This document shows positions 18,285-44,550 of a stretch of DNA of 45,079 nt, one piece after another. Under the pieces are notes generated by a model, which saw nothing but the letters and a program-made list of their open reading frames with translations, did not search any database and had not been told where the DNA came from. The position numbers and the translations under genes were made by a program. The stretch comes from Bacteroidota bacterium (GTDB lineage: Bacteria; Bacteroidota; Ignavibacteria; UBA10030; UBA6906): NCBI GenBank assembly GCA_020846365.1, contig JADLEA010000019.1:1-45079 (forward strand). The letters are read 5' to 3'. Every line of letters starts with the position of its first letter. The stretch's first letter is position 1.

Positions 18285-18299
18285 GCGCCGGATCGCCGG

Positions 18300-26027: not shown

Positions 26028-26185
26028 AGGTCAGCCCCGCGTGCCGCCGGGAGAACGGGAAATCGGGTGTGTATCGACCCGGATGCGCACAAGCCACGTC
26101 TGCGCGTAACCCGGCATCCGGCTACGCGCAGGCATGGCATGATCGACAGCTTGCGACTCTTGGCGGCGGGTGTGGTGAATCCAGC

Positions 26186-26545
26186 CTACCGTGCAACGAA
26201 TGTCTTGAATCCCCCGTAGAGCATCCGTTTCATGTCGAAGGGCATGTTCTTCTCGTCCATGAACTTCTTTATTTGCGGGTCATTCATGACCTTCTTGTTC
26301 ACCTGGTCGCGATGGGCGCGGGATTTGAATTCGATGCAGGACAACACCACCACCTCGCCTCTTTTGAGCTTGACGCTCCGTGGAAACGACACGCTGCCCT
26401 TTGCGCTCACGTCGTCCGACACCGACTCCCAGTAGTTTACCGCCCCATGCTTTCGCCACAGCCTGGCCCCGAGCTTCGCCATCGCCGTGTATGCCTTGAA
26501 TTTCTTCTTTGGTATCGCCAACACGAAGCCGTCAACGTAGCGCAT
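26186..26545 (-). CDS. DUF1428-family protein
   Basis: I set the start at ATG 26545 (GGGAGG upstream). MRYVDGFVLAIPKKKFKAYTAMA...MLYGGFKTFV is characteristic of DUF1428. Confidence 0.78.
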   Translation of the reverse strand: MRYVDGFVLAIPKKKFKAYTAMAKLGARLWRKHGAVNYWESVSDDVSAKGSVSFPRSVKLKRGEVVVLSCIEFKSRAHRDQVNKKVMNDPQIKKFMDEKNMPFDMKRMLYGGFKTFVAR

Positions 26546-26741
26546 GGATCCTCCCGGATGGATTGGTGTTATGGTGCTCTCTTCGCCCCCTTCATTCCAT
26601 AACACCCTTGTCACGAGGAAGGGTTCCGGTATCAGCCGAAAACCGAGCATGAGATCGCGGCGATACCAAAACGAGGGTCATACTGCCCGGTCAGGTCCTG
26701 CACATTCGGAAGACAGGCCCGGCGGTCCGGCGGGAATGAAC

Positions 26742-27929
26742 CTAGTGATCCTGGGCCAGACTCTCCCCGAGATATGGATCCTTGACGGGGAAGATCTTGT
26801 GCTTGCCGAGTGATGTGAAGGTCAGAAGGAAGAACCCGCAGATCCCTGCAGTCATCGGGGCGAGTTCCCACAGGGAGACCGTCGGACCATCCTTCATGAA
26901 CGGAGGGAGGATCATCCAGAACAAGTCGATCCAGTGTCCGAGCATGACGATCATGCAGACACGGAGCAGAAGGCCTTCGCTGCGCTTGGCCCAGGCAGGC
27001 ATGAGCACAACGAATGGGATCAACCAGTTGAAGAGGACGTTCACAATGGTCAGGGTCAGCCATCCCCCTCCTGACCGCATTGTGTAGAAACGCACCTCCT
27101 CGGGAATATTGGCATACCAAATCAGGATGTACTGGCTGAACCAAATGTACATCCAGAATGTGCTGAAGGCAAAGATGAGCTTCCCGAGGTCGTGAAGGTG
27201 CGCTTCGGTCACCGCGGTCCCAAAGTACCCCCGTCTGCGCAGGAGAATAACGACCACGGTGATTGTCGCGAGGGCGTTCAGAAAGAGCCCGCTGAAATTG
27301 TAGACGCCGAAAATGGTGCTGTACCAGTGGGGCTGGAGGGACATGATCCAGTCCATGCTCGCAAGCGTAAACGTAAAGGCAAACACCACAATGAATGATG
27401 CGGAGACCCTGCGGTTCCTGAGGGTGTGGTCGATGCTGCCGTCGAGATCCTGGGCGCGCGAGTACCGGAGGATCAATGAGGAGAGCGCAATCCAAAGGCC
27501 GATGTAGGCCACGGTCCTGATGACGAAAAAGGGTGCATTCAGCCATCCGGCCTTTGCCTGCAAGACGTGGCTGTGCTCCACCGCCGATGGATGGCTCCAC
27601 TCATAAAGCGACGGGATGCCGAACAAGATCAGGATCATCACCACACCCGAGACGGGCAGTGCGAGCGTCATGGCTTCTGGCACCCTGCGTATGACGGTCG
27701 CCCATCCCGCATGAGAGACATACTGCAATGCCACGAACAGCACCCCGCCGAGGGCGAGGCTCATCAGATAGGTGTTGGCGAGGAGAAGATTGGGCCAGGT
27801 GCGATCGGGGGAAAGCACTATCCCCGCGCACGTTGCAACCACCCCGGCGCCCGTGACGGCGAGAAGAGACTGGCGGAATGGCGCGGTCATCCGGAACGAC
27901 CTGTGCGATAGCATGAGCGCGTTCCTCAT
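26742..27929 (-). CDS. actF: Alternative Complex III subunit ActF (second NrfD-like quinol-interacting membrane subunit)
   Basis: Polytopic membrane protein. I set the start at ATG 27929, which overlaps the actE stop as ATGA. It occupies the last position of the actABCDEF order. Confidence 0.82.
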   Translation of the reverse strand: MRNALMLSHRSFRMTAPFRQSLLAVTGAGVVATCAGIVLSPDRTWPNLLLANTYLMSLALGGVLFVALQYVSHAGWATVIRRVPEAMTLALPVSGVVMILILFGIPSLYEWSHPSAVEHSHVLQAKAGWLNAPFFVIRTVAYIGLWIALSSLILRYSRAQDLDGSIDHTLRNRRVSASFIVVFAFTFTLASMDWIMSLQPHWYSTIFGVYNFSGLFLNALATITVVVILLRRRGYFGTAVTEAHLHDLGKLIFAFSTFWMYIWFSQYILIWYANIPEEVRFYTMRSGGGWLTLTIVNVLFNWLIPFVVLMPAWAKRSEGLLLRVCMIVMLGHWIDLFWMILPPFMKDGPTVSLWELAPMTAGICGFFLLTFTSLGKHKIFPVKDPYLGESLAQDH

Positions 27930-28522
27930 TGCTGTGCCGGAGTCATTGCGATCGCCGCTGTCTGAAGGCGTCTGATGAACATCACCACGCGCCATCGATC
28001 ATCGCGGGCGGCCTGTGCGGCGAATGGCGGCATGTTGCCCTGTCCAAAGGTGATGACGTGGAAAAGCTGTCCATCCTTCATGGAGTTCGCATGCGGAGCG
28101 GTGAGCGGCGGAGGCGGCGGGAATCCTCTCTGCGGTATCAAGCCGTCCCCCGCACCGCCGGGGCCGTGGCAGGGGCTGCAAACGTTCTTGTACACCACCG
28201 CCCCACGGGCAAGATTGTCCGCACTGTCCACCAACGCCAACGGGTTGCGCAGTTCAAATCCCGCCCGGAGAGCATCTTCCGCCGATCGTGTGTACGGCAG
28301 AGGATCGAAGCCCCGGGCTATCGTGCCCCTGGACGGCGCCCGTGCGGCGTTGCCGTCGACATACACGACAGCCGCGGCCTGGGTCTCATACGCCGCCGGC
28401 TCGACCATGCCCGGCATGAACTCCACATTTTTCTTCGAGTAGTCCCTCCGGGCAAGGAAGACCGTTCCCGTCATAGCCGTCAGAAGGACCATGAGAACCA
28501 GATTCCGAACTCGTACCGACAT
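27926..28522 (-). CDS. actE: ACIII monoheme cytochrome c subunit ActE
   Basis: 198 aa with an N-terminal TM anchor and a single CSPCH heme motif. It ends in the conserved tail MPPFAAQAARDDRWRVVMFIRRLQ. Confidence 0.85.
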   Translation of the reverse strand: MSVRVRNLVLMVLLTAMTGTVFLARRDYSKKNVEFMPGMVEPAAYETQAAAVVYVDGNAARAPSRGTIARGFDPLPYTRSAEDALRAGFELRNPLALVDSADNLARGAVVYKNVCSPCHGPGGAGDGLIPQRGFPPPPPLTAPHANSMKDGQLFHVITFGQGNMPPFAAQAARDDRWRVVMFIRRLQTAAIAMTPAQQ

Positions 28523-28525
28523 GCG

Positions 28526-29050
28526 CTACTCCCGTACAATCTGTTCTTCCAGATGGAGAAGTTTGAACGGCCTGAACAGCGCCTCGACGTTCCTGACATC
28601 GAAGGATGCATCGCGTTCTTCGAGCACGAGAACGAACTGATCGTCGGTGGCGCGGAAATACGTCGCCTTCGGCGCCGCTCCCGGGAAGAGCCGGCTCCGG
28701 AGCAGGAAGGCAAGGACCGTTCCGACCCCGGCGAACAGCACCATCACCTCGAACGTTACCGGAACAAACGCAGGTATCGACACGAGCGGTTTCCCTCCCA
28801 CATTTACCGGCCAGTCCCATGCCGATGTCCAGATCTGAAAACCGAGCTTTGCTATCGCGCCGGTGAGCCCAAAGGCGAGACAGACGTAAGCGAGCCGCGT
28901 TGGCCGGATTCCCATCGCCACGTCAAGGCCATGCACCGCAAACGGGGTGTACGCATCCAGTATGGTATACCCGCCCTCTCTGGCTCGTGCTGCTGCGCCT
29001 ACAATATCCTCCTCTGAGCCAAAGACGTTCACCAGAATCCGTCGGCTCAT
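28526..29050 (-). CDS. actD: ACIII subunit ActD (DUF3341)
   Basis: 174 aa, [42 protein letters not shown], then two TM helices. The ATG at 29050 overlaps the actC TAA by 1 nt. The N-terminal extension in the track ORF is a shadow of actC. Confidence 0.85.
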   Translation of the reverse strand: MSRRILVNVFGSEEDIVGAAARAREGGYTILDAYTPFAVHGLDVAMGIRPTRLAYVCLAFGLTGAIAKLGFQIWTSAWDWPVNVGGKPLVSIPAFVPVTFEVMVLFAGVGTVLAFLLRSRLFPGAAPKATYFRATDDQFVLVLEERDASFDVRNVEALFRPFKLLHLEEQIVRE

Positions 29051-30471
29051 TATGCACCTCCGTTCACTGACCGACCGTACCGTAGCACCCCCTTCACCTC
29101 CCCGATGGCGACCATCGGCAGGAACCTCGCAAAGAGGAGAAAGAGGGTGAAGAAAAGCCCGAAACTCCCGACCAGCGTCCCAAGGTCCACCAGCGTGGGT
29201 GTGAAGCCGGACCAGCCGGCCGGTATGTAATCCCTGGTTAAGGATGTCATGATGATCACGTACCGTTCGAACCACATCCCGATGTTGATGAAGATGGAGA
29301 GCGCGAACACGGCGGCAACATTGGCCCGGACTCTCTTGAACCAAAAGAACTGAGGCACCAGAACATTGCACGAGATCATGATCCAGTAGGTCCATGCATA
29401 GGGCCCCAGTGCTCTGTTGACGAACGCAAACCTCTCGTAGGGATTTCCGGAGTAGTACGCCACAAAAAGCTCTGTGGCATAGGCCAGTGCCACCATCCCT
29501 CCCGTAGCGAGAATGATCGTGCACATTTGTTCGATGTGATGGGGGGTGATATATTCCTCCAGGCGCATCACCCTTCGCACGATGAGCATCAGGGTGAGTA
29601 CCATGGCGAAACCGGAGAATACCGCGCCGGCGACAAAGTACGGTGGCAGAATCGTGGTGTGCCATCCGGGAATGACGGAAGTCGCAAAGTCCCAGCTCAC
29701 GATGGTATGCACCGATATCACCAGCGGTGTTGCAAGTCCGGCAAGCAACAAGTACACCTTCTCATAACGATGCCATGTCCGATTCGACCCGTTCCACCCG
29801 AGGCTGAGGAAGGCGTAGATCCGCTTTCTGATGCCGGGTGCGGTGCGGTCCCGGAGGGTCGCAAAATCGGGGATGAGCCCGACAAACCAGAACACGGCTG
29901 AGATTGTGAAATAGCAGCTGATGGCGAACATATCCCACACCAACGGAGAACGGAAATTCACCCAGAGCGGACCCCGAAAGTTCGGGTATGGCAACAACCA
30001 GAACGCAAGCCAGGGCCGGCCTGTGTGAATGATGGGGAAGATTCCCGCACATATCACGGCGAAAATCGTCATCGCCTCAGCAGACCGATTCACCGATGTC
30101 CTCCATTTCTGGCGGAACAGGAATAGAATGGCGGAAATCAAGGTGCCGGCGTGGCCTATCCCGATCCAGAAAACGAAATTGGTGATATCGAAGGCCCATC
30201 CCACGGTGTTGTTCAAGCCCCACACCCCGACGCCCGTCAGAACCTGGTATCCGACTGACAGCGCGCCGACTGCAAGCACCGTAAGAGACACAAGGAACGC
30301 AGCCCACCACGATAACGAGGCCTTCTGATCAAGCTGCGAACAGATGTCGCTCGTCACATCCCTGTAGGTCTTGTTTCCAAGGATGACCGGTTTCCGGAGT
30401 CCGGGTTGAGGCGGGACAGCTCTTCCGGCGCTTGCGTCAAACACCTTTTCTCCCGTCACGACGTCATGCAT
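29050..30471 (-). CDS. actC: ACIII NrfD/PsrC-like membrane subunit ActC
   Basis: Polytopic NrfD-type protein. I prefer ATG 30471 (an 8-nt overlap, ATGCATGA, with the actB stop) over the TTG at 30510. Confidence 0.9.
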
Positions 30472-33400
30472 GGTCCGCTTCCCCTGCTTGTTCTTCCCGG
30501 TTGCGTACAAGGGTCAGGTATCCCACTGATGGGCGAACGCCGAGTTCTTCCAGAACACGGTAGTGACGGGGACTGGAAAGGGTTTTCGAGATTTCACTGC
30601 TGGGATCGTTCACGTCGCCAAAGATGATGGCCCGGGCCGGACACGACTGGGCGCACGCTGGTTGCGCATCGCCGTCGTTCAGTGGCCTCCCTTCCCGTTT
30701 TGCCCGGATCTTTGCTCCCTGGATTCGCTGGATGCAAAACGAGCATTTTTCCATCACTCCCCTCTCGCGCACGGTGACATCGGGGTTCAGCACCATCCTC
30801 TGCATCTCGTCCCCGTGCCTGTACTCGAACCAGTTGAATCGTCGCATCTTATAAGGGCAATTGTTCGCACAATACCTGGTTCCCACACACCGGTTGTAGA
30901 TCTGCTGATTCAGCCCCTCCGCACTGTGCACGGTTGCGAGCACCGGGCACACCGTCTCACACGGCGCATTTCCGCAATGCTGGCACATCATCGGTTGGTG
31001 GGAAACCGAGAATTCTCCGCGTGCCTCGTCATAGTAGCGATCCACGCGGATCCAGGCCAGTTCCCTGTTCCGGCGGACCTCGTCCTTCCCTACCACCGGG
31101 ATGTTGTTCTCCGCCTGACAGGCCATGACGCATGCCGAGCAACCCGTACACGCCGTGAGATCGATCGTCATTCCCCAATGGTGGCCAGCGTACTTGTGAT
31201 CGTCGGGCCACAGGGAGTCGAGTTCCTCTTTGTGGAAGCTCCCGGCGCTCGGATCGTTTGCGAAGGCAGCCAGCGTGGTTTCCTGCACTATCGGCCGACG
31301 GTGTCCGGTCTCCCCACCGAAGAGGTTCGGCTCGCGCAACGAGTGGTATTCCTGCGTAGTCACCAGGACATGTGTTCCGCCTGTAGGAATCAGCCGCGCA
31401 GCATCAATCCTGTTTGTCCGGCAACCAGCCTCGATGAGGCCGAACAACGCCGCATTCTTCCCCACGGTTTCGCCCGAGCCCACAGTGGGGCGCGACTGAA
31501 GCCACTCCGGTCCGATGTCTCTGAAGCGGTCTGTTCCTTTCCTCCCGTAGCCAAGGGTCACGACAACAACAGCATCGTGCTGTCCGGGTTGGATGTGCAC
31601 GGGGAGTTCAAGGAACTTCTGATTGGCCTCGATCCGGATCAGGTCGCCATGCCGGACGCCGAGTGCTTCGGCAGTTTTCCGTGAGAGCGACGCAGCGTTG
31701 TCCCACACGATCTTTGTGACGGGATCGGGAAGCTCATGCAGCCAGGGATTGTGCCCGTGCCGGCCGTCCAGTATGGTAAGCGATGGGTGAAGCAGGAGAG
31801 TGTATCGCCCGCCCGCGAAGCCGGGAGGCGGGCCGCCCGGAGAGGCCGTGACGCCTCCGGTTGCCGGTGGGATGCTCACGCTCGTCGGCCCACGCTCAGT
31901 CACGACGGTTGCGACCGCGTCGTAGTCGCACGCATGGTGGGGCGCCGATGCGGATCGGACAACGGCGTAGCCGTCGGCCAACGTACGATTCCAGAACGCA
32001 TCCATTGTCTGACTGGTCGCATGCCGTTCCCGGATCGTGCGCTCCCACTCCCGGCGGATCAGATCTAACGCCGGAGCATTGTCGCCGCTCCACACGCTGA
32101 GACTTTCGATCATCTGCCGGCTGTCTCTCAGGGACCGGATGGTGGGTTGCGCCAGCGCGACGATTCCCGAAACCGGTTCGCTGTCATTCCACGCCTCAAG
32201 GAAGTGTGGCGTGGGGCAGACATACCGGGCACATGCTGCGGTTTCATCGTCTTCTCCCGAGAAGCTCACAACGAACGGAGTTTTTTTCATCCATTCTCCC
32301 AGCGCCTGGCCCTCCGGAAGATCGTACACGGGGTTTGCGCCCGAAACAAAGAGGGCCTCAACGCTCCCTCGCCGCAACTCGTTGAGAAGGTCTTCCACAC
32401 CGGCGTCATTCCCGGCGTACTGGTGTGACGGCGTGTCGATGTCGACGGTGCCGCCGTAATTGTCCAGCATGGCATTGAGAGCATTCACCAGCACCTGATG
32501 TCTCACGGTGTTCACGCCACAGACGACCAATCCTCTCCCGCGAGCATTCCAGAGGCGATCTGCGAGCCGGCGGACGCTGTTATCCAGATTCGCCGGCAGG
32601 CGCACAGAAAGTCCTAATGTCCGGCCGGCCCTTTCCGCAATGATCGCAGCCATTCCCTCCAGGCAAAGCTGTAACTCGTCGGGAGAGACACATACCCTTT
32701 GGTCTGCGTTGCTCCCTGTCAGGGACACGCGCGACTCGAAGTGCGCGTGAAACGAGAACCGTGCCGGGTTGCCTGCAGGTGTCCTTCCTGCGCGATATCC
32801 CTTCGTGAATTCCACCGGCGAGATCCAGTTGCCGAGAAAATCCGCGTCAAATGCGGTGATGACACTCGCCTCCGCAAAATGATACCGCGGTAGCACACGC
32901 GCACCGTGCGTCAATCGGTGGGCATCCAGAATGGCAGCACAGGACATCGGATCATACTCCACATGTCTCGCATCAGCGAAACTGCCGAGGAATCGCTGTA
33001 TCACCGCCCGTGTCGCCGGGCTGGTCACGGTGCCCGTGAGAAACCGCACTGCACCTTTTCCGCGCCGGATGCGATCGAGTTCCGCCATCACGTGCCGATC
33101 GAGTTCTTGCCAACTGGACGGGGCTCCCTTCATCAGGGGCGCTTTCAAACGCAATGAATCATAGAGTCCGAGCAGCGAGGCCTGACCGATTGCGCACATG
33201 CCGCCTTGGGAGAGGGGATGTCCGGGATTGCCCTCGAGTTTGATCGGCCGTCCGTCTCGCACTTTTGCCAGGATGCCGCAGCCGGCCTGACACCCGGCAC
33301 AGATGGTGGAGTACCAGACAGCGCTACCCGGGGTTGATTCCTCCGGTTGCACCAGGTGGGGAATCGCCTTTTCGACTCCACCTTGCTGACACCCTGCCAG

Positions 33401-33499
33401 CACGGCGCCTGCGAAAGAGAAGCCTGCGAGTCTAAGGAATGACCGCCGCCCCATTCCGGGCAGCGACGCGACGTTTATGTGACCGTACTCCTCTGTCAT
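30464..33499 (-). CDS. actB: ACIII subunit ActB: Tat-exported fusion of a molybdopterin-oxidoreductase-like domain and a 4-cluster Fe-S domain
   Basis: Twin-arginine signal [21 protein letters not shown]. The N-terminal motif is CX2CX3CX27C. C-terminal ferredoxin motifs are [37 protein letters not shown] and CAQSCP. Start is ATG 33499, or the TTG at 33613 used by the track. Confidence 0.9.
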
Positions 33500-33641
33500 G
33501 CATGCCTGTCTGGCTTGTGTTGTGAGGGTGCGCCGTGGTCTCCGGTTTTTCACATGTTTGGCCGGGATCGTCTTCCGGTTTCCGCGTTCCTGTCCTGTCA
33601 GGGAGATCCACAAGGTCCGGCGGGTGCGGAGCCCAATCCCT

Positions 33642-34307
33642 TCAGTGGTGACAAACGATACAATCCGTTGAAGCCGCCACCTTCCTGCCGTTGATCCCCG
33701 ATCGATTTGCTTCGCGATGACAGTTCACGCACCATCCCATGGAGAGATCAGACACCTGCCGGACTCGTTCCATCGTTTCCACCGCACCGTGGCAGGTCTG
33801 GCATTCCACACCCGCCGAGACGTGTGCGCTGTGGTTAAACCGGACATATGCCGGCAGACTGTGCACTCTCACCCATTCGATTGATGTAGTCGGTTTCGGT
33901 GAGTCCGGTTTGAAATCCGCATTCAGGCCCATCGCGGCGTACACTTTGGCCAGTTCAGGAGAGATGATTCGGCGTGGCTGCCGTTTCTCTTTTGACGCGC
34001 GTTCGTCTTCGGCCCGGACGTTTACCCACGGCGCTGTGACAATCGTATGACAGTTCATGCACACGGCGGCAGCGGGAATGCCTGCGGATCCGCCCCGTTC
34101 CGCGGCGGTGTGGCAATGCAGGCACGGAATCCCCAGTTCTCCGGCGTGAAGCCGGTGGGAGTACTGGACCGGCTGAACCGGCTCGTATCCCTGATGATTC
34201 CCGGGCAGTTTGATGTTGAACGTAAACGACGTAACGAACACGCTGAACGTGAGCAGCACCGCGATGCCAAGAATCACCGTCAGTATTTTGCTGTTCAACC
34301 AGCCCAT
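33642..34307 (-). CDS. actA: ACIII pentaheme cytochrome c subunit ActA
   Basis: An N-terminal TM helix and five CXXCH motifs (CLHCH, CMNCH, CQTCH, CVNCH, CIVCH). Start is ATG 34307, or GTG 34385 as in the track. Confidence 0.85.
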   Translation of the reverse strand: MGWLNSKILTVILGIAVLLTFSVFVTSFTFNIKLPGNHQGYEPVQPVQYSHRLHAGELGIPCLHCHTAAERGGSAGIPAAAVCMNCHTIVTAPWVNVRAEDERASKEKRQPRRIISPELAKVYAAMGLNADFKPDSPKPTTSIEWVRVHSLPAYVRFNHSAHVSAGVECQTCHGAVETMERVRQVSDLSMGWCVNCHREANRSGINGRKVAASTDCIVCHH

Positions 34308-34409
34308 CAGTACACGTCCGTGAGTTGTCTTCCCAGTGTCAATGCATTTGTGTACGTTGCCGCCTTCCTGCGGGAAAGAGCGCACATCACCGCGCCGTCG
34401 GCAGCCAGG

Positions 34410-35969
34410 TCATCCAATATTCGCAGCATGCCGCCGCTGAATCTGGATCGGAACACCCTCAACAGCCCCTTGCACCTGCCTGCGATCTTCTATCTGGCGG
34501 TCCAGCAATGGTGCCTGCTCCCGAAGGATCTTCCGGACCGTCACATGTAACCAGAGATAGCTCCCCAGCGTCACGATGAAGAGAAACATCCAGGCCGTTG
34601 TCCAGATGCCGCTGGTCTGAAGCAGATAGCCGAAGATGATCGGGCACGTGAAGCCGCCCAGTCCTCCGATGACGCCGACGATACCCCCCACGATGCCGAC
34701 TTCTTTTGGATAGTACTCGGGGATCAGCTTGTAGACGCCGGCCATGCCGACGCCCATCATGATGCCCACGAGGAAGACCAGGATGCTGAAGACCCAAACG
34801 TTCGCCTGGAAGTAGACGTGCGTGACGCCGCGCGCCAGCAATTGCTTCTTCACGACGCTGTCCCCGACCCGCACCGCGGGTTCCTGCCAGAACGTGAACG
34901 TCGGCCAGATCAGCGTCGCGTTGTCCCAGGTCCGGTCGTCTGCCCCGGGTCTCGTTAGCACCTGGTAGTCCCTTCCGGATACGCTGATCTTTTCCGAAGT
35001 GACCTCAGTGACCACTCCTCCCTGCTCGGCCATGATTCCCTGTCCGGGCGATTCGATGTCCATGCGAGGCACACACAACAAGGCGAAGCACACCAGGCAG
35101 AGCCCGAAGACCCAGGTCATGACTGCACGGGCGCCGAACCGATCGGAGAGCCAACCGCCCGCTGCGCGGATGACGCCCGTGGGAAAGCTGAACAGACTGG
35201 CCATGAAGCCGGCAAAAGCAACCGTCATGCCATACGCGTTCACGTAGTACGGGATGAGCCACTGGGCGAGCGCAACGAACCCCCCAAACACGACGAAGTA
35301 GTAGAAGCCGAATCGCCAGACTCGCAAGTATCGCAGGGGTGCGAGGCGACGGAGCAAGGTGAGTTCCTGGCCATGCTCCACTTTCCTTGACTTCGCGAAC
35401 GCGAAGAAGACTAGCGCCGTCACTACCAGGGCAACAGCGTAAATGCGCGGCAGGGCGCGCCATGCTTCCAGGTGCTGGCCACCCCCGGTGAGGGTTTGGA
35501 GAAGCACGGGCGCCCCCAGGCTCGTCAGGGCGGCTCCCGCATTCCCGACCCCGAAGATGCCGAGCGCCGTCCCCTGCCGGTCTTTCCTGAACCATAAGGA
35601 GGTGTATGCAATGCCGACGGCAAACGACGCGCCGGAGAGGCCGAACCCGAGACTGGCGAGAAGGAAGCCCGTGAAGCTTGTCGCATAGCTCAAGAAAAAG
35701 GTCGGAATGGCCGAGCAAAGCAGGAGCAGTCCGAAGACCAGACGGCCCCCGAATCTGTCGGTCAGCACACCGATCGGCAATCGCATGACGGAGCCGGTCA
35801 ACACCGGGATGCCGATCAGCCAGCCGATCTGCCCTTTGTCCCAGGCGAACACGCCCTGTTCCACAAGGAACGTCACGAGCACGCCGTTCATCGTCCAGAC
35901 CGCAAAACAGACGGTGAATGCAAATGTGTTCAGCGCAAGAACAAGGATGGCTGACCGGTTCTCCGTCAT
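34410..35969 (-). CDS. narK: NarK-type nitrate/nitrite MFS transporter carrying an extra extramembrane domain
   Basis: I set the start at ATG 35969, which overlaps the narI stop as ATGA. It is an NNP-family transporter with conserved Arg residues (VMRLPIG, GVIRAAGG) and a GVGNAG signature. The 519-aa length includes a hydrophilic insert of about 90 aa. Confidence 0.85.
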   Translation of the reverse strand: MTENRSAILVLALNTFAFTVCFAVWTMNGVLVTFLVEQGVFAWDKGQIGWLIGIPVLTGSVMRLPIGVLTDRFGGRLVFGLLLLCSAIPTFFLSYATSFTGFLLASLGFGLSGASFAVGIAYTSLWFRKDRQGTALGIFGVGNAGAALTSLGAPVLLQTLTGGGQHLEAWRALPRIYAVALVVTALVFFAFAKSRKVEHGQELTLLRRLAPLRYLRVWRFGFYYFVVFGGFVALAQWLIPYYVNAYGMTVAFAGFMASLFSFPTGVIRAAGGWLSDRFGARAVMTWVFGLCLVCFALLCVPRMDIESPGQGIMAEQGGVVTEVTSEKISVSGRDYQVLTRPGADDRTWDNATLIWPTFTFWQEPAVRVGDSVVKKQLLARGVTHVYFQANVWVFSILVFLVGIMMGVGMAGVYKLIPEYYPKEVGIVGGIVGVIGGLGGFTCPIIFGYLLQTSGIWTTAWMFLFIVTLGSYLWLHVTVRKILREQAPLLDRQIEDRRQVQGAVEGVPIQIQRRHAANIG

Positions 35970-36676
35970 GCCGAGCCCCGCCGCAAAGCCCATTTCGTAT
36001 ACCAGCGCACCACCTGGGCTTTGCGCCAGAGGTACGGGTTGGGAACAACCAGGATATGCACCAGGCGCGTAAACGGGGCAAAGGCGATCATCAGCCATGC
36101 GCTGGTCATGTGCACCTTCACCATCCATGGCAAGGAAGCAACCGGCGAGATATCCGGTTGGAGTGTCACCAGCGACCAGAGATAGGGGGCGGCGAGCGCC
36201 GCAAACCAGGATGAGCCCCAACTGTGGTACACCGCTACGTACAGGCCGCTCAGGATCTGTACGACAAAGCTCCCCAGCACGACCCAGTCCGCCCGGGACG
36301 TCACCGCACGAACCTTGGGATCCGTGAGCCGGCGCAAAAGGATCGAGGTCAGACCCACAAGCGTGAGGAGGGCCGCGATCAACGCGGATCCCTCGAGTAT
36401 ATAGAGCCGGATGGGGTGACTGTTCCAGGCAAGAAGCTCTCGCGGGACGAGAAACCCGACGAGGTGTCCAAGCAGGACGGTGATGATGCCGAAATGGAAC
36501 GGCACCAATCCCCAGAAGTGGTTCTGATTTTCCAGGAACTGCGACGACAGACTGGTGAAGGTGAACGCCTCTCTCCGGTATCGCCGGATGGAGACCAGGA
36601 CAAAGATGATCACGGAAACGTACGGGAACACGACCAGGAAAATCTGGTCAAGGATGAACGGTCCGGGAATCGTCAT
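35966..36676 (-). CDS. narI: Respiratory nitrate reductase gamma subunit (diheme b membrane anchor)
   Basis: 236 aa with 5 TM helices. The NarI N-terminus is ...FPYVSVIIFVLVSIRRYRREAFTFTSLSSQFLE...HFWGLVPFHFGI. Confidence 0.9.
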   Translation of the reverse strand: MTIPGPFILDQIFLVVFPYVSVIIFVLVSIRRYRREAFTFTSLSSQFLENQNHFWGLVPFHFGIITVLLGHLVGFLVPRELLAWNSHPIRLYILEGSALIAALLTLVGLTSILLRRLTDPKVRAVTSRADWVVLGSFVVQILSGLYVAVYHSWGSSWFAALAAPYLWSLVTLQPDISPVASLPWMVKVHMTSAWLMIAFAPFTRLVHILVVPNPYLWRKAQVVRWYTKWALRRGSA

Positions 36677-37236
36677 GACGTTGTCTCCAGCGTTGACATC
36701 TGCGCGCAGATCTCGAGCAAGGCGACTCGTGTAGCCGCCAGCACGTGCGCATAAGGATTGTCCTTGCCTGCAAAACCCTCACACATCTTGTCGACAGCCC
36801 TGAGCAGATGGCCGGCGACAAAGGATCCGGCCTCTTCACCGTCTATTCTTCCCAGGGCGAGCAGGAGATGGGTGAGGTGGTCCGGAAGTTCTGTGGATTC
36901 CTCGACAGAGCAACGGCGGAGCAGCTCACGCATCCGGACGAGGAACGCGCCGCGTTCGTAGGTCTCGCCGTAGAGATGCCAGCCGACCTCCAGACTGCTG
37001 ACGGGGTTGATGTCGAACGTCCTCGTATACAGCTCCTCCAGCTCTCCCGCAGTGAGTCCGTCGATCCCCTCTGCGAAACGTGTCATGGCTTCAGCAATGG
37101 CGCGGGCTCCCCCATTGCCGCCGCTTCCCAGACACGCACAGAGTTCTCTGCAGCGGGTGACGGCGGACCGGTAATCTTCGCCCGGGTAGTGCAGAGTGCG
37201 GGCGAGAGCATCCAGGACGTCTCTCGGCATGCCCAT
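36673..37236 (-). CDS. narJ: Nitrate reductase molybdenum cofactor assembly chaperone
   Basis: 187 aa, placed between narH and narI. NarJ/TorD-like sequence (ELEELYTRTFDINPVSSLEVGWHLYGE). It overlaps both neighbouring genes. Confidence 0.85.
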   Translation of the reverse strand: MGMPRDVLDALARTLHYPGEDYRSAVTRCRELCACLGSGGNGGARAIAEAMTRFAEGIDGLTAGELEELYTRTFDINPVSSLEVGWHLYGETYERGAFLVRMRELLRRCSVEESTELPDHLTHLLLALGRIDGEEAGSFVAGHLLRAVDKMCEGFAGKDNPYAHVLAATRVALLEICAQMSTLETTS

Positions 37237-38726
37237 CAGAGACCCCTCCGAGGAGACTCCATGAAGCCGAATCCTGTCGATCCCTTGTGTTCGAGAGGAT
37301 CGCGCATCATCTCAATTGCCTCCTCCCGGTGCATCGGAGGTATGACAAAGCGCTCCTCAAACGTGCACAGCGATGTCAGGTTGTACACCGCCTCGGCCTC
37401 CTCCGGCGAACAATCGGCTTCGCGGAGCATCGCCGTGGCAACGTCCATCGGGATGTCCCCCACAGTGACCGCCCGGCGGTAGGTCCGGATGGCTTTCTGT
37501 TTCTTCAGCGCATACAGCACTTTCCCCTGATGCCCTGCGCCGAACAGGTTGGCCAGAAACTGCAGCGGGACGCGCGAGTCCTCGATGTCGTGGAAAAACT
37601 CTTCCGAAACGCCGCCGACCGTGGTTTCATCCCTGTGCGCCATCACCGGCGACATCGGTGGGACGTAATAGAGCATCGGCAAGGTGCGGAATTCTATGTG
37701 GGGAGGGAGCGCGAGCTTCCATTCCTTCACGAATTTGTATACCGGTGAGGACTGTGCCGATTCGATGACGCTCTCGTGAATCCCGTTCGCCAGCGCTGCG
37801 GCAATCACCGCCGGATCCCGCGGGTTCAGCACCAGTGAGCGGTGCGCATCGACGAGTTGATCGGTGGGCGAAGCGGCGACTTCTTCGATCCGGTCAGCGT
37901 CATACAGCAGGACGCCCAGGTACCGGATCCGGCCAACACAGGAGTGGAAGCAGGCGGGCGCCTGCCCCGTCTCCAGCCGTGGGTAGCAGAGCACGCACTT
38001 CTCAGATTTTCCCGTGGACCAGTTGTAGAAGGACTTTTTGTAGGGACATGCCGCGACACATGCTCTCCAGCCGCGGCAGCGTTTCTGGTCAATCAAGACA
38101 ATGCCGTCTTCTCCCCGCTTGTACAGTGCTCCGGAGGGGCAGGAAGCCACACAGCTCGGATTCAGGCAGTGGTTGCAGATGCGCGGGAAATAGAAGAAGA
38201 CCAGACGCTCAACGGCAAAGAGCTGTTCGCGTTGATCCGGTGTGAGGTTCTTCAGGTTCGGATCGCTTTCCGCATACACGGGGGAACCACCGAGGTCGTC
38301 GTCCCAATTCGGTCCGGCCTCGATGTTGATGTATTCCCCGGTCACCTGGGAGATCGGCCGGGCCACCGGCTGATCGGCGCCTTCGGGCGCGTTGAACAGA
38401 TCGCCGTAGGTGTAGGTCCACGGTTCATAGTAATCGTCCATGCTCGGCATGGAAGGATTGTGAAAGATGTTGGTAATGGTCTTTGCCTTGCTCGTGGACC
38501 GGAGCCGGAGTTTCCCGTCCTGTAGTTCCCACCCTCCCCGGTACTTCTGCTGATCCTCCCACGCTGTAGGGAACCCCGTGCCGGGTTTGGTTTCCACGTT
38601 GTTCCACCACATGTACTCCGTTCCCTTGCGGTCGGTCCAGATGTTCTTGCACGCAATGCTGCATGTATGACACCCGATGCATTTGTCGAGGTGAAACACC
38701 ATCGAGATTTGCGACCGGACATTCAT
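37236..38726 (-). CDS. narH: Respiratory nitrate reductase beta subunit
   Basis: 496 aa beginning MNVRSQISMVFHLDKCIGCHTCSIACKNIWT. All four Fe-S Cys groups are present. AAGGAGAGG lies upstream. Confidence 0.95.
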   Translation of the reverse strand: MNVRSQISMVFHLDKCIGCHTCSIACKNIWTDRKGTEYMWWNNVETKPGTGFPTAWEDQQKYRGGWELQDGKLRLRSTSKAKTITNIFHNPSMPSMDDYYEPWTYTYGDLFNAPEGADQPVARPISQVTGEYINIEAGPNWDDDLGGSPVYAESDPNLKNLTPDQREQLFAVERLVFFYFPRICNHCLNPSCVASCPSGALYKRGEDGIVLIDQKRCRGWRACVAACPYKKSFYNWSTGKSEKCVLCYPRLETGQAPACFHSCVGRIRYLGVLLYDADRIEEVAASPTDQLVDAHRSLVLNPRDPAVIAAALANGIHESVIESAQSSPVYKFVKEWKLALPPHIEFRTLPMLYYVPPMSPVMAHRDETTVGGVSEEFFHDIEDSRVPLQFLANLFGAGHQGKVLYALKKQKAIRTYRRAVTVGDIPMDVATAMLREADCSPEEAEAVYNLTSLCTFEERFVIPPMHREEAIEMMRDPLEHKGSTGFGFMESPRRGL

Positions 38727-38753
38727 GCTGACCTCTCCTTGTTCATTCCGGGA

Positions 38754-41700
38754 TCACCAGATGAGCTGGGGGCATTTCCTCACCAGGATGTGCGTATCAC
38801 GGTTGCAGCCGACGGGGCCCCAGTAGTTGAAGTGATAAGTGAACTGGCCGTATCCTCCGACCATGAGGTTCGGTTTCAGCCGGGTCCGGGTGAGACTGTT
38901 GTGGCCGCCCGCCCTGCGGTTGTTGCGGAGCGGCGACTTGGGGACGGAATACGTTCGCTCCGGTGAATGGTAGATGATGCAGATGCCGCGGGGGATACGG
39001 GCACTCACCGCCGCACGCGTCACGACGACCCCGTGGTCATTGTACACCTCCACCCAGTCGTTGTCGTTCACGCCGATTTCCGCCGCATCTTTGTCATTCA
39101 TCCAGAACGGCTCTACGCCACGGGAAAGGGTCGTCATCCTCTGGTTGTCGCCGTACGTGGAGTGGATGTGCCACTTGCCATGCGGCGTGAGGTAGTTCAG
39201 CATCTTGGACGGGCCGGCCTCTTTGGTGAAACGGAGGTCAGCGTAGTGCACGGGTGCCGGCTTTGGTTTGTAGGTCGGAAGATGCTCGCCGAACTGAATG
39301 TATCCCGGGTGGTCCAGGTAGAAATGCTGTCGCCCTGTGAGCGTCCGCCAGGGCACCCGGGCCTCGATGTTGTAGGTAAAGGGAGAGTAGGCGCGGCCGT
39401 TCTCCGTCAGGCCGGACCACATCGGACTGTTCAGGAGTCGCATTGGCCGGCCCTGCAGCTCGCGGTATGAAATGCGGGTGCCGCGGTTCTTTTCGGCCAG
39501 ATGGACCAGCGGGAGCCCTACTTTTTCCTCCATGTTTTTGTACGATCGGTATGCGAGTTCGCCGTTCGTCACCGTGGCGAGACGCAGAATCGCGTCGCAG
39601 ACGTGAACGTCCTTGTTCAATGAGGGGTAGCGCCCTCCGTCAAACGACTCCACCGCACCGGTCTCCATCAACTCGTCGTAGAAGTCCTCAACGCCGTAGT
39701 GCGTCCCGTGTGCGCCGAGCCCGTTTGTCCGCACCAGGGGGCCGAGCGAGATAAACTGATGGTACACCTTCCTGTAGTCGCGCGTTACCACGGTCAGCTT
39801 TGGCATGGTCTTGCCAGGGATCGCCTCCGCATCCCCTGTGATCCATTCTTTCATCTGCGGCTGCGCGACCTCAGCGGGAGAATCGTGCGCGAGTGGGGTG
39901 GCAACAATATCTCTGACGGGCTCGGGGAAGTGGCGGCCCGCCAGCTCTGAAAACTTCCGCGCGATTGCCTTGAAGATGTCCCAGTCACTCCGGGATTCCC
40001 AACACGGCGGAACGGCTGCCGAAAGAGGATGGATGAAGCTGTGCATGTCGGTAGAATTCAGATCTGCCTTCTCATACCATGTCGCGGCCGGAAGCACGAT
40101 GTCCGAATACAGAGCGGAAGTGTCCATGCGAAAATTGAGATCAACGACGAGATCCAGTTTGCCGTGTGGGACCTTGTCGTGCCAGGTCACTTCGTGCACA
40201 TCGTCTTTGGCAATGTCCTCGGCCACGGCGTTGTCGTGCGTTCCGAGATAGTGGCGGAGGAAATACTCATGCCCCTTGCTGCTGGCCATCAGGGCATTGC
40301 CGCGCCAGATGTACCAAACGCGGGGCCAGTTTTCCGCAGCATCCGGGTCTTCGACGGAGAACTTGAGCGTCCGGGTCCTGAGCTGATCGACAACGCGGGA
40401 GATGATGTCTTCGGCTGACGAAGCGCCGCTCGCCTCAAGCTCCCGGACGAGATCCAGCGGGTTTCGCGCGAACTGCGGATAGAAGGGCAGCCAGCCGTTG
40501 CGGACCGCTCTTACCTGGGCGTCCATGGTGTGCCCCTGTGCCAGGGAACCCGCTTCCTGCTTCGCGGGCACCGTGTGGTAGTCGGTAAACCCTTTCTCGT
40601 ACCTCCACTGATCGGTGTGCACGTAGTGCCAGCTTGGGGCGTTCTGCAGTCTGGACGGCCCATACCAATCTTTGGCAAATGCTATGGCGCCCCAGGGCTC
40701 CCCGGGTGCCAGTTTCTCCTGTCCGACGTAGTGCGCAAGTCCGCCCCCGTTCACTCCAATGCAGCCGCAGAACATGAGAGCATGAATTCCCGCGCGGTAC
40801 ATCAGGTTTGCGTGATACCAGTGATTGATGCCTGCACCGATGATGATCGTGCATTTGCCGTTCGTATGCAGAGCGGTGCTCCCCCACTCCCTCGCGAACT
40901 TGATGACATCCTTCCGGTCGATCCCCGTGTACTTTTCCGACCAGGCGGGAGTAAACGGTTTCTCCGCATCATCGTAGTCGTCCGGATATTCCCCCTGCAA
41001 TCCGCGCGGGACCCCATACTGTGCCATGAGGATATCGTACACGGTGGCAACCGGGACCGTTGCCCGGTCGCCCGTCGGGATGAACCTGACCGGAACATGG
41101 CGGCAGTGGCTGGTCGCGTCGGCGAAGTTGTCGAACCGCACCGGGAGAGTGGTTGCCTCGCCGTCGAGGAACGAGAGCTGCGGGGCGATGGGAGTGCCAT
41201 CCAGGCCATCCTGGAGGACCAGGTTCCACTTCCCTTTTTCCGTCCCCCACCGGAAGCCCGAACTCCCCATGGGCATCTTCACCGATTGCGACTGCTCATC
41301 CCAGACGAGGAACTTCCACTCCGCGTTCTCCACCCCGGCGTATTTCTGCACACGGCCGGCACGGAGAAGTTGACCCGCTTCGTAAGTATCCCCGTCTCTG
41401 GTGAGTTCGACAAGGTAGGGCGCGTCGGTGTACTGTTTTGCGTACTCCAGGAAATAGGGTGTCTGCTTTTCGTGGTGGAACTCCTTCAGCAGCACATGGT
41501 TTACCGCCATCCACCAGGCACCGTCCTGGCCGGCGTTCACGGCAACCCAGTGGTCCGCGTATTTTGCCACCTGACTGAAATCCGGAGAGAACACATACAT
41601 CTTGGTCCCGTTGTGTCGTGCTTCCGCCGCGAAGTGGCAGTCGGGCGTGCGGGTCATGTTCAGGTTGGAGCCCATCACCGCGAGCAGCTTCGCATTGTAC

Positions 41701-42398
41701 CAATCAGCTGATTCCTGCACATCGGTCTGCTCTCCCCATGTCTCCGGGGAGGCGGGGGGAAGGTCGCAGTACCAGTCGTAGAAGGAGAGGGAGATGCCGC
41801 CCAGCAACTGCATCAGGCGTGCGCCGGCGGCATAGCTGATCATGGACATGGCAGGGATCGGGGAGAAGCCGGCAATGCGGTCGGGACCGTGTGTCTTGAT
41901 CGTGTGGATGTTCGCGGCGGCGGTAATCTCCAGGGCTTCGTCCCAGCTGGCGCGTCGAAATCCGCCCTTGCCGCGTGCGCGCTGCCACCGGCCGCGTGCG
42001 TCCGGATCCGAAACGAGCGCCTTCCATGCATCTACCGGGTCTTCATGCTCCGCACGCGCTTTGCGCCAGAGGTCCAGCAACGCGCCGCGGATGTACGGAT
42101 ACTTGACGCGCAGGGGGCTGTAAAGATACCAGGAGAAAGAAATGCCCCGCTGGCAACCCCGCGGCTCGTATGGCGGGAGACCGTGCTCCAGGGACGGGTA
42201 GTCGAGCCCCTGCATTTCCCATGTCACGATCCCATCTTTTACGTGAATCATCCATGTGCAGCTCCCCGTGCAATTGACGCCGTGCGTGCTCCGCACCACC
42301 TTGTCATGCTGCCAACGATTTCGATAGAACTCCTCCCAGCTGCGGAGGTGCACGTCGTCTTCGTCTTTGATCCAGCTGATATGGCCGGTGTCACTCAT
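38754..42398 (-). CDS. narG: Respiratory nitrate reductase alpha subunit (cytoplasmic nNar type, no Tat motif)
   Basis: I set the start at ATG 42398 ([15 protein letters not shown]...). The FS0 motif [11 protein letters not shown] is present. The Mo-ligand context [23 protein letters not shown] is conserved, with the Asp codon at 41764-41766. Length is 1214 aa. Confidence 0.95.
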
Positions 42399-43323
42399 GC
42401 GCAATCTCCAGTCGTTTCTTCCGTACCAAATCCCGCCGTACGGTGCGGAAGCGTTTTCCCCATACGACATCCAGCAGGCCCATGATGAGGAGTGTGCCGG
42501 CAAGCCCGACGAGAATGAAGTTGAGCCGGGCTGGGGAAATATCGTCGGGGTTGCGCGCAAGTGTGCTCTGGAAATAGGCGACAATCGCAAGCACTTCATC
42601 GCTGTGGAGGGGCGCGCGGGTGTACAGTGAACTCATGGTGGGTGTTTGCGGGGCGGAAAGCCACGCCGAGAGAGTCTTGCGCCCCTGGTACCGCTCCAGA
42701 ACAGTCGTGAGGTCAGGGGCAAGGGTCCCACCGCCGAAAAACGTGAATCCCTGAACGGTGTGACACGACATGCAGGCCGGACCTCCGTTTTTCAACGGCA
42801 GAGAGCCCACAAAGACCCGCCTGCCCCACTCGACGTCTTCGGGCGTGAACGGCCGGTCACTGACTTGCGTCCCCGCAAACTGCGAACGTGAAAGCTGTGA
42901 TTCTGCCTGAATCAGATCCAGCAACGCCTCGGCGCGAAGGCGGGTCATTCCCTGAAGGCTCGGCATAACGACGCCGCGCGACGCTTTGACAAGCTCTTGC
43001 GCGTAAGGATCGCCGGCATCGATCATGCTCTTGGGGTCTTGGATGAACTGAATCAACCATGACCGCTCCTTCCGCCGCGCGACGTCTTTGAGATCAGGTC
43101 CGGTCAGCCGCCCGCCTCCGATCGTGTGGCAACTCTGGCAGTTGTTCCGGAAATCCACGGAGACATCCTGTGCAAGCATTTCCGGGACCGGCAGCATCAC
43201 GCACAGCGCCCATAGTGCCGCCCCCGGGAGGGCCACATGGCGCCAGCCCTCCCGTACGCGGAAGGCACATCTGGATGGAGAATGCGACCACGGACGGCTG
43301 GACCTCTCGACGGCAGGGTGCAC
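42391..43323 (-). CDS. narC: NarC-like membrane-anchored diheme cytochrome c
   Basis: 310 aa. GTG 43323 is preceded by AGGAGG at an 8-nt spacing. Features are a signal-like N-terminus, two CXXCH motifs (CQSCH at 43126-43140, and CMSCH) and a C-terminal TM helix ([20 protein letters not shown]). Its stop overlaps the narG start by 8 nt. Confidence 0.75.
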
Positions 43324-43345
43324 GGATCAGGCCTCCTGTCCTGAT

Positions 43346-43367
43346 ATTCAGACTGAATTGTCTGAAT
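43346..43367. promoter_or_regulatory. Perfect inverted repeat in the narC leader
   Basis: ATTCAGAC-TGAATT-GTCTGAAT (8-bp arms, 6-bp spacer), 23-44 nt upstream of the narC GTG. Confidence 0.35.
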
Positions 43368-43428
43368 TTATCCCACAACAAGATGCCCTGCAGGCATCGT
43401 TGGACTCTATATCAGACTATTTCGTCGG

Positions 43429-43457
43429 AATATACTCGTGCGGATCGTGAATGTCAA
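43429..43457 (-). promoter_or_regulatory. Sigma70-type promoter candidate for the nar(-act) operon
   Basis: The minus strand reads TTGACA (43457-43452), a 17-nt spacer, then TATATT (43434-43429), about 105 nt upstream of narC. Confidence 0.45.
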
Positions 43458-43464
43458 GGGGGGA

Positions 43465-43514
43465 AAGAAAAAAACATCCGCAAACGTCAGTGCCGCCCCG
43501 GAGAGAGGCGGCAC
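43465..43514 (-). terminator. Possible terminator after the cupredoxin gene
   Basis: The minus strand has GTGCCGCC-TCTCTCCGG-GGCGGCAC (8-bp stem, 43490-43514), followed about 14 nt later by a T7 run. That T-tract spacing is non-canonical. Confidence 0.4.
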
Positions 43515-43589
43515 TTTCGCACCCGCGTCATGTGCAAGCACGCATCTCAGCGTATGACCGAGCTGACCCGCAGAACACACGCCGGCTCC

Positions 43590-44243
43590 CTACCGCACAA
43601 GCACCATGGTTCTCGTGCTCGAAAAGCCGGATGCCGAAAGCTGGTAGACGTAGATCCCGCTCGGCAGATTGCTGGCGTCAAAGGTCACTACGTGATTCCC
43701 CGCATTCCTCAACCCATTCACCAGCTCCGCCACCTCCTGTCCGATCAGGTTGAACACAGCGAGCTTCACCCAGGATGCCGCAACACCGGGGACCTGATAT
43801 CCGATCGTGGTGGAGGGGTTGAACGGGTTGGGATAGTTTTGCCGTAGCTCGAACCTCCCGGGCTGCGCCGTCCCCTCGTCAACCGCACTGACCACCGCAA
43901 TGAACGAGCCGCTCATCCCCGGTCCGTGCGAGTCGCAGGTATAATTGTAGTTGCCCGGGGCAGGCACGACATAGTTGAACACGGATCCGGATGCGCTGGT
44001 GAATGCCCCCGCACCCGCCGGTACCGCGGTCGAACTCAGCGGATGAAATCCGAAATCCCCCTGCCACCGTACCGTGTCGCCTACCGCCACGGCCAGCTCG
44101 TTCGGTGTGTACGAGTTCCCGAATTCACCGCCGAACCGGATGACATGCACTGTCGCTCCCGCCTCCGACGGTGAGAGCACTGCAACAAGTACCGCGGCCC
44201 GAAACACCCATGCGGTATACATCGACCACCGACTGCCCTTCAT
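43590..44243 (-). CDS. Cupredoxin (type-1 blue copper, plastocyanin/pseudoazurin-like) protein with a T9SS C-terminal sorting domain
   Basis: I set the start at ATG 44243, which has AGGAGG upstream and gives a signal peptide (MKGSRWSMYTAWVFRAAVLVAVLSPSEA). Candidate Cu ligands are His in GFHPL and C-X2-H-X3-M in YTCDSHGPGMSG. The tail QNYPNPFNPSTTIGYQ...SGIYVYQL...TMVLVR matches the type A T9SS C-terminal sorting domain (CTD). Confidence 0.75.
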   Translation of the reverse strand: MKGSRWSMYTAWVFRAAVLVAVLSPSEAGATVHVIRFGGEFGNSYTPNELAVAVGDTVRWQGDFGFHPLSSTAVPAGAGAFTSASGSVFNYVVPAPGNYNYTCDSHGPGMSGSFIAVVSAVDEGTAQPGRFELRQNYPNPFNPSTTIGYQVPGVAASWVKLAVFNLIGQEVAELVNGLRNAGNHVVTFDASNLPSGIYVYQLSASGFSSTRTMVLVR

Positions 44244-44550
44244 CTGCCCCTCCTCTTGAGAATGCGTGACTTCGTGAACGTTTAGCTCTAAGACGTATTC
44301 ACCATAACAGGAGAACCGGTGCATCAGTTCCTCCGAGAACCCCCGGCGGGGGAAAGGACTATGTGGACTGGATGGGACATGAGGCATCCGGCGCGATCGT
44401 CCACGCCACAGAACGAGCGTCAGGTCCAACCCCGTCGGTCTGGTAGTCCAAACCCATCGGTTCAGTCGCGTTCGCCTGCCACAACCCGTATCTTGACAGG
44501 AAGTATCAGGCCGTTTCGTCTCGTCGCCCACAGTACGCCAGGAGAGTTGC

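Follow-up and report, generated by a model that had tools for sequence, protein, structure and literature searches.

In a contig of a Bacteroidota bacterium, the genes of a membrane nitrate reductase (Nar) run directly into a complete set of genes for alternative complex III (ACIII). The stretch of DNA that was analysed, referred to as the window, is 45,079 nucleotides (nt) long (JADLEA010000019.1, positions 1-45,079; assembly GCA_020846365.1). The block occupies positions 26742-43323 on the minus strand, 16.6 kb in all, and consists of 12 intact genes in the order narC-G-H-J-I-K and actA-B-C-D-E-F, each ending in a single terminal stop. ACIII is generally regarded as a substitute for bc1 in aerobic or phototrophic chains, and respiratory ACIII is typically, though not by definition, encoded beside a haem-copper oxygen reductase. 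Judged from gene content, spacing and conservation in relatives, we put the probability that the block is a co-inherited functional module for nitrate respiration at about 85%. The module most likely comprises a four-subunit Nar of the Thermus type (NarC-NarGHI, with NarJ and a NarK-type transporter) joined to a dedicated, paralogous lineage of ACIII.

The six nar genes of the window are the following.

narC, 42391-43323, minus strand: periplasmic dihaem cytochrome c with a C-terminal membrane helix, at the head of the block
narG, 38754-42398, minus strand: catalytic subunit (TIGR01580, 1498 bits against a cut-off of 1084)
narH, 37236-38726, minus strand: iron-sulfur subunit (TIGR01660, 649 bits against a cut-off of 524)
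narJ, 36673-37236, minus strand: probable assembly chaperone (PF02613, 34 bits, which passes)
narI, 35966-36676, minus strand: dihaem b membrane subunit (TIGR00351, 123 bits against a cut-off of 106)
narK-like gene, 34410-35969, minus strand: MFS transporter of 519 residues (TIGR00886, 177 bits, under the subfamily cut-off)

By these model scores, NarG, NarH and NarI are equivalogs of the respiratory, cytoplasm-facing membrane nitrate reductase. The N-terminus of NarG has no RR motif of the twin-arginine translocation (Tat) type, and its active site should therefore lie on the cytoplasmic side. NarJ scores 43.8 bits with TIGR00684, under the cut-off of 59.35, and its assignment is supported because the gene sits between narH and narI. 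As the MFS transporter scores under the subfamily cut-off, its substrate can only be presumed. This transporter has a hydrophilic insert of ~90 residues (roughly residues 300-390) between transmembrane helices, and its match to Pfam MFS_1 covers residues 17-303 only. The long form of the transporter is kept in the relatives described below (523 residues in L001), most of which add a second, ordinary MFS gene of 400-450 residues before actA; the window carries the long form only.

That NarI oxidises quinol itself, as the earlier note on this DNA had stated, is made plausible by its sequence. When NarI of the window was aligned to E. coli NarI (PDB 1Q16 chain C), all four haem-ligand histidines were found to be kept. 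The four ligands are invariant among the NarI sequences compared, and Gly65 and His66 are retained. Where E. coli NarI has Lys86, a residue of the quinol site, 65 of 65 sequences have arginine.

NarC, the first protein of the block, has two CxxCH motifs, matches Pfam Cytochrom_C and ends in a hydrophobic helix at residues 262-280. Its gene starts with GTG, which is preceded at a distance of 8 nt by AGGAGG. Over residues 52-263, NarC is 29% identical (E = 1e-10) to the cytochrome encoded directly before narG on the Thermus thermophilus plasmid pTTJL1801, and the alignment takes in both haem domains. Haem domain 1 (residues 58-126) also resembles the extra monohaem domain of Flavobacterium johnsoniae ActA (6BTM chain A, E = 4e-7), as well as SCO1/SenC-fused cytochrome c domains.

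The six genes that follow encode the subunits of ACIII.

actA, 33642-34307, minus strand: pentahaem cytochrome c with five CxxCH motifs and an N-terminal membrane helix (158 bits to 6BTM chain A)
actB, 30464-33499, minus strand: Tat-exported (RRSFL) fusion of a molybdopterin-oxidoreductase-like domain and an Fe-S domain
actC, 29050-30471, minus strand: NrfD-type quinol-binding membrane subunit (PF03916)
actD, 28526-29050, minus strand: ActD (PF11821, 170 bits)
actE, 27926-28522, minus strand: monohaem cytochrome c with one CxxCH motif and an N-terminal hydrophobic segment (PF13442)
actF, 26742-27929, minus strand: second NrfD-like membrane subunit (245 bits to 6F0K chain F, 196 bits to 6BTM chain F)

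On the evidence of sequence, this cluster is a bona fide ACIII, with all six subunits showing the expected motifs and topology signals. For ActA, ActB, ActC and ActF, the best match among solved structures is the corresponding chain of an ACIII (6BTM, 6F0K, 6LOD, 8K9E). ActB, which has Molybdop_Fe4S4 and Fer4 domains, scores 585 bits to chain B of 6BTM and 579 bits to that of 6F0K, and ActC scores 630 and 617 bits to the respective chains C. ActF found no match among Pfam or NCBIfam models, and an exact-protein look-up of the ActD of the window returned no record. All haem motifs found are of the CxxCH type, and on reading the sequence of ActA we saw no CxxCK motif of a catalytic haem.

The genes of the block are tightly spaced. 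Within the Nar part, narC and narG overlap by 8 nt (42391-42398), narG and narH are 27 nt apart with an AGGAG in between, narH and narJ overlap by 1 nt, and narJ/narI and narI/narK both overlap as ATGA. Within the ACIII part, actB and actC overlap by 8 nt and actC and actD by 1 nt, actD and actE are 3 nt apart, and actE/actF again overlap as ATGA. The gap between narK and actA, where the two parts meet, is 102 nt if actA starts at ATG 34307 and 24 nt if it starts at GTG 34385. Since homologues of ActA measure 218-221 residues and cover 98-100% of the query, the start at 34307 and the gap of 102 nt are favoured. Every overlap and gap that the earlier note had listed from narC to actF was obtained again on recomputation, including both starts behind its range of 24-102 nt. 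A gap of ~142 nt between actA and actB was absent from that list; it is based on an inferred start codon of actB, the ATG ahead of the Tat motif RRSFL.

Three elements outside the coding regions bear on the transcription of the block.

Promoter element TTGACA-17-TATATT, 43429-43457, minus strand: sigma-70-like, upstream of narC, 11 of 12 consensus matches
Palindrome ATTCAGAC-N6-GTCTGAAT, 43346-43367, no strand assigned: perfect, between the promoter element and the narC ribosome-binding site
narK-actA spacer, 34308-34409, minus strand: 102 nt, without a promoter-like or terminator-like site

The element upstream of narC, which had been picked out before as the one good promoter-like sequence, is the sole strong sigma-70-like site in 26000-45079. 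The total number of promoter-like sites is no higher than expected from shuffled sequences, so that the element is to be read as a consensus match only. The scan used the sigma-70 consensus, from which promoters of the FCB group deviate. No terminator-like site was found by the sequence scan between narK and actA, in agreement with the earlier statement that a hairpin with a T-tract is missing there, and a hidden terminator in the narK-actA or the actA-actB spacer was rejected, as folding was no better than that of shuffles (z = +1.5 and +0.4). Taken with the spacing, we consider that narC to actF are probably co-transcribed as one unit. The palindrome is a possible operator; as a conserved operator it was rejected, with no counterpart upstream of narC in related loci. 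An FNR/CRP box (TTGAT-N4-ATCAA) was likewise rejected, as 15 matches were found against 13.5 expected, and none of them lies close to narC or actA.

That the block is one functional unit is strongly supported by its conservation. An alignment scan with ActA, taking one genome per species, gave at least 574 relatives, and the closest 80 (45-73% identity) were analysed together with four added metagenome loci, annotated by tblastn with the proteins of the window. According to precomputed Pfam labels, the three closest ActA homologues on long contigs (70-76% identity) all lie in narCGHJI-MFS-actABCDEF blocks. Throughout the closest 80 and the four metagenome loci, narCGHJI comes first and actABCDEF last, with 0-2 or more MFS genes between them, given enough upstream DNA; of the loci whose upstream DNA exceeds 6 kb, just three (L046, L064 and L078) are without nar, and narC was found in all 23 loci with room for it. 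At least 70 species of uncultured bacteria, from ~11 phylum-level groups, have the same block. The adjacency of the two gene sets is hence not confined to this genome; such confinement was among the outcomes that the earlier note had named as refuting its proposal. By the labels of the database records, the hosts are Acidobacteriota, Planctomycetota, Bacteroidota, Ignavibacteriota/Chlorobi, Zhuqueibacterota (KSB1), Calditrichota, Verrucomicrobiota, Elusimicrobiota, Hydrogenedentota, Armatimonadota and one genome labelled 'Deltaproteobacteria'. Almost all of the carrier genomes are metagenome-assembled.

The relatives are also informative about the junction between the two parts and about the flanks. 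Where an MFS gene precedes actA, the median gap between them is 10.5 nt (n=60); where narI does, it is 14 nt (n=15). Many relatives show an overlap of 1-15 nt, and the 102 nt of the window is at the long end. In nine loci (L025, L026, L037, L038, L051, L052, L063, L070 and L081) an MFS/narK-type transporter gene follows actF, and the ACIII genes are therefore embedded inside the nar gene set there; in L063 the transporter gene and actF share 4 nt. Downstream of actF, the genes that run in the same direction encode mainly MFS transporters and the molybdenum-cofactor proteins MoeA, MobA, MoaA, MoaC and MobB, and no aa3 or cbb3 oxidase was found among them in the related loci. Rrf2-family regulators recur upstream of narC.

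A few loci carry other genes beside the block. A qNor-like gene (COX1 with a NorB cytochrome c-like domain) follows actF in a single locus, and in L004 actF is followed by a gene for a multihaem cytochrome of 529 residues (18207-19796); the two hint, as rare cases, at partners in the periplasm or for N-oxides. In L064, from Planctomycetota, an ACIII of the same clade (1880-5601) has no nar upstream, and nosZ and nosD lie divergently beside actA.

The two complexes appear to have evolved together. Correlations of identity matrices between the complexes (r = 0.64 for narH-actC and 0.68 for narH-actB) are as high as those within them (0.61 for narH-narI and 0.70 for actC-actB), and in a Mantel test 0 of 999 permutations reached the observed Nar-Act correlation. 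In the ActC tree, the sequences of the loci and of the window form one clade apart from the oxidase-linked ACIII of F. johnsoniae and Rhodothermus marinus and the phototrophic ACIII of Roseiflexus, with a bootstrap value of 91/100. ActC of the window shares 64-86% identity with those of the loci and 61-63% with the two references from the FCB group. The two nar-less loci that possess actC fall inside the Nar-linked clade.

While gene content, motifs, spacing, conservation and co-evolution were observed, from them we infer the direction of electron flow and the acceptor. We lean slightly towards a branched mechanism, with a NarI route and a parallel ACIII route leading from quinol. It is the most economical model because NarI keeps the residues of the quinol site and NarC of Thermus provides a precedent. 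Menaquinol would be oxidised at two sites encoded on the same transcript. NarI would hand electrons on, through the membrane, to NarH and NarG, and nitrate would be reduced in the cytoplasm. ACIII would take up electrons from quinol at ActC and pass them through ActB and the haems of ActA and ActE to periplasmic carriers with haem c, with the membrane-tethered, dihaem NarC as the likely docking or relay partner of this branch. The carriers could then feed periplasmic reductases for nitrite, NO or N2O that are encoded elsewhere and would handle exported nitrite and the later N-oxides, and the ACIII branch would conserve extra energy.

The precedent comes from the narCGHJIK(T) operon on the nitrate-respiration conjugative element of Thermus thermophilus, in which the order from narC to narK is the same as in the window. 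There, too, a homologous dihaem NarC with a C-terminal anchor is encoded directly before narG, NarG faces the cytoplasm, and a dedicated electron-transfer partner, the Nrc NADH dehydrogenase, is encoded beside nar. NarC of Thermus is a fourth subunit of Nar that interacts with NarI and is needed for maturation of Nar, and under repression of complex III it is also required for the cells to grow with nitrite or NO (PMC7694296). The two systems differ in that the operon of Thermus is followed by DUF2249 (drp) genes and that of the window by ACIII, and in that the partner in Thermus is on the donor side (NADH to quinone) whereas that of the window is on the side of quinol to cytochrome c. The identity of the two NarC proteins is 29% only.

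Several points weigh against a dedicated nitrate module of this kind. Genes for nir, nor, nos or nrf were not found in the window, and very few were found in the flanks of the relatives, and because such N-oxide reductase genes are missing from the one and rare in the other, the proposed periplasmic acceptors have not been seen. The relay of electrons to Nir and Nor in Thermus is ascribed to NarC alone, so that necessity does not account for an ACIII. This ACIII might also be the sole complex III of the cell and serve oxidases encoded elsewhere as well; relatives of the Zhuqueibacterales do encode cytochrome c oxidases (PMC11683472). The gaps of 102 nt between narK and actA and of ~142 nt between actA and actB could hide a promoter of a type outside the sigma-70 model. 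As for the samples, the 80 loci were picked by their similarity to the query, and the ActC tree is a neighbour-joining tree with three outgroup sequences only.

An unlikely alternative is that the two complexes work in series rather than in parallel. Nar and ACIII would be physically joined, in analogy to ACIII-aa3, and electrons would run from menaquinol through the haems of ACIII to NarC, the b haems of NarI, and NarH/NarG, with ACIII as the main quinol oxidase. The span from menaquinol to nitrate is ~500 mV and leaves energy unused by NarGHI alone, which would suit such a chain, as proton translocation by ACIII would add to the charge separation by NarI and raise the H+/e- ratio. The chain is also consistent with NarC being universal and first in the operon, with the strict synteny and translational coupling, with the frequent position of ACIII between narI and narK or molybdenum-cofactor genes, with the lack of periplasmic N-oxide reductase genes in nearly all flanks, and with the resemblance of haem domain 1 of NarC to the additional cytochrome c domain in ActA of F. 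johnsoniae. An exchange of electrons between NarC and NarI has been inferred genetically in Thermus, and runs in reverse in the nitrite oxidoreductase (NXR) of Nitrobacter (PMC7694296). On the other side, the basic residue at the Lys86 position, with Gly65 and His66, fits oxidation of quinol by NarI, the homologous NarCGHI of Thermus draws its electrons from the quinone pool, and transfer from a c haem to a b haem may be uphill. Loss of the quinol site of NarI was considered as a sign of electron flow in series, but the site residues are conserved, and given this conservation a test by loss of the site does not discriminate strongly.

We regard as improbable that the cluster is a general ACIII with its own promoter and no special tie to Nar, serving oxidases or cytochrome c-dependent reductases encoded elsewhere. 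The long gaps ahead of actA and actB in the window, the position of FCB promoters outside the sigma-70 model of the scan and the cytochrome c oxidases of the Zhuqueibacterales relatives would all allow it. Against it, most relatives show a gap of 0-15 nt or an overlap before actA, narK or molybdenum-cofactor genes come after actF, Nar and Act co-vary, and the ActC clade is separate from oxidase-linked ACIII. Moreover, the cultured Ignavibacterium album has a different, caa3-linked ACIII with a fused ActDE, and no Nar (PMC3362086).

Operation in reverse is far less credible than either of these. The NarGHI-like enzyme would then be a nitrite oxidoreductase, or NarC would be fed by periplasmic donors, and ACIII would run backwards from cytochrome c to the quinone pool. 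The NXR of Nitrobacter, which faces the cytoplasm, does fall within the same clade of NarG and comes with a cytochrome like NarC (PMC7694296), and no direction was assigned to these enzymes in PMC10732223. Against this stand the score of NarG as a respiratory NarG equivalog, the lack of a linked terminal oxidase, the NarK-type transporter and Rrf2 regulators, which fit nitrate respiration, and hosts that are mostly of heterotroph lineages. That the six genes encode a new membrane nitrite reductase like NrfAH and not an ACIII, as hypothesised in PMC10732223 for a cluster that directly follows Nar and includes a pentahaem cytochrome and a molybdopterin-like subunit, is the most remote of the alternatives, given that the solved ACIII chains are the best matches (ActC 630, ActB 585, ActF 245 and ActA 158 bits), that ActD is the ActD of Pfam, and that the haem motifs are CxxCH throughout, with no CxxCK seen in ActA.

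The genes next to the block and the remaining features of note in the window are as follows.

DUF1428 protein, Crp-family regulator and 2x[4Fe-4S] ferredoxin-DUF4405 membrane fusion, three genes at 24581-25456, 25359-26027 and 26186-26650, minus strand: directly downstream of actF
Plastocyanin-like cupredoxin, 43590-44753, minus strand: with a C-terminal sorting domain of the type IX secretion system (T9SS)
Type II NADH dehydrogenase (NDH-2), 3331-4716, minus strand: candidate quinone-reducing donor
RND efflux gene set, 5478-11083, plus strand
RND efflux gene set, 18300-24006, minus strand

Oxidase, nir, nor and nos genes were found nowhere in the 45-kb window. Domain scans agree with the earlier description of the downstream side, which named DUF1428, crp and a ferredoxin fusion and no oxidase gene. 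The Crp-family gene recalls DnrT of the nar region of Thermus. On the upstream side, a GC-rich hairpin followed by a T-run lies at 43489-43515, between the cupredoxin gene and the nar promoter, and probably ends the cupredoxin transcript before that promoter. The cupredoxin is probably exported to the cell surface, as its T9SS sorting domain would suggest. Because of this domain, and because the hairpin and T-run separate its gene from the nar promoter, the cupredoxin is an unlikely acceptor of ACIII. The proposal of a dedicated Nar-ACIII module in the earlier note has therefore to be divided: one functional unit is strongly supported by conservation, spacing, flanks and co-variation, and the neighbouring cupredoxin as its acceptor is unlikely.

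The closest known counterparts of the ACIII part are the ACIII-caa3 of R. marinus (6F0K) and the ACIII-aa3 of F. johnsoniae (6BTM), which have the same actABCDEF set and motifs, with ActC 61-63% identical to that of the window. In both, as in the window, ACIII is encoded beside its electron-transfer partner. The partner there is a haem-copper oxidase, whereas in the window it is an anaerobic nitrate reductase, and ActC of the window type falls into the separate clade described above (bootstrap 91/100). ActA of F. johnsoniae has an extra monohaem domain; ActA of the window is without it, and a similar domain is found in NarC instead.

A complex III next to Nar has one further parallel in Thermogutta terrifontis, in which bc1 genes lie beside NarGHI and a role in nitrate respiration was proposed (PMC5673643). 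This case differs from that of the window in having bc1 and not ACIII, no NarC and a NarG of a deep-branching lineage, and in being known from a single organism.

The arrangement of the window itself has apparently been reported once. Suarez et al. 2023 (PMC10732223) described Nar upstream of a cluster of six genes in 13 Planctomycetota and KSB1 genomes. The cluster was given as a pentahaem cytochrome, a molybdopterin-4Fe4S fusion, NrfD, ActD, a 'ccoP'-like protein and a 'quinone-binding subunit 2'. It was said to match no described complex, and a novel nitrite reductase was tentatively proposed; 'actD' has zero occurrences in the supplement of that paper. That paper gives no account of NarC, of the spacing within the operon, of the spread over many phyla or of co-evolution. 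The statement of the earlier note that no Nar-ACIII fusion had been described is thus nearly right, with the reservation that Nar upstream of this cluster had been reported without the cluster being recognised as ACIII. PMC10732223 is the only prior mention of the block that we found; an older one in the literature surveying ACIII gene contexts (Refojo et al. 2010) is possible. No description of a Nar-ACIII linkage was found in the papers checked on Caldithrix, Ignavibacterium, peatland Acidobacteria, MBNT15 and Gemmatimonadota, nor in those on Zhuqueibacterota, Limisphaera, the evolution of NOR, and aquifer and deep-subsurface metagenomes (PMC3903129, PMC7509429). In published accounts of ACIII (PMC3362086, PMC9386147), the complex is linked to oxygen reductases or phototrophic acceptors, and an evolutionary study of 2023 dated the ActB family on the assumption of a role purely in aerobic respiration (PMC10100899).

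As judged from the genomes compared here, the joining of a Thermus-type NarCGHI to a distinct lineage of ACIII is widespread, barely described and previously misread. The cluster, which had been taken in print for an unknown complex or for a nitrite reductase, is corrected to ACIII, and a complex that is usually tied to oxygen respiration probably also has a widespread form for nitrate respiration. If this is true, reconstructions of denitrification and of the reduction of nitrate to ammonium from genomes would change, including those for Acidobacteriota, Planctomycetota, Bacteroidota and further groups abundant in soil, sediment and groundwater, and the premise of a purely aerobic ActB that was used for dating (PMC10100899) would be weakened. 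The finding also puts forward Nar-NarC-ACIII as a specific candidate supercomplex with a possibly higher energy yield from nitrate. Should electrons indeed pass through ACIII to Nar in series, the block would represent a higher-yield respiratory chain for nitrate that has spread by horizontal transfer across many phyla.

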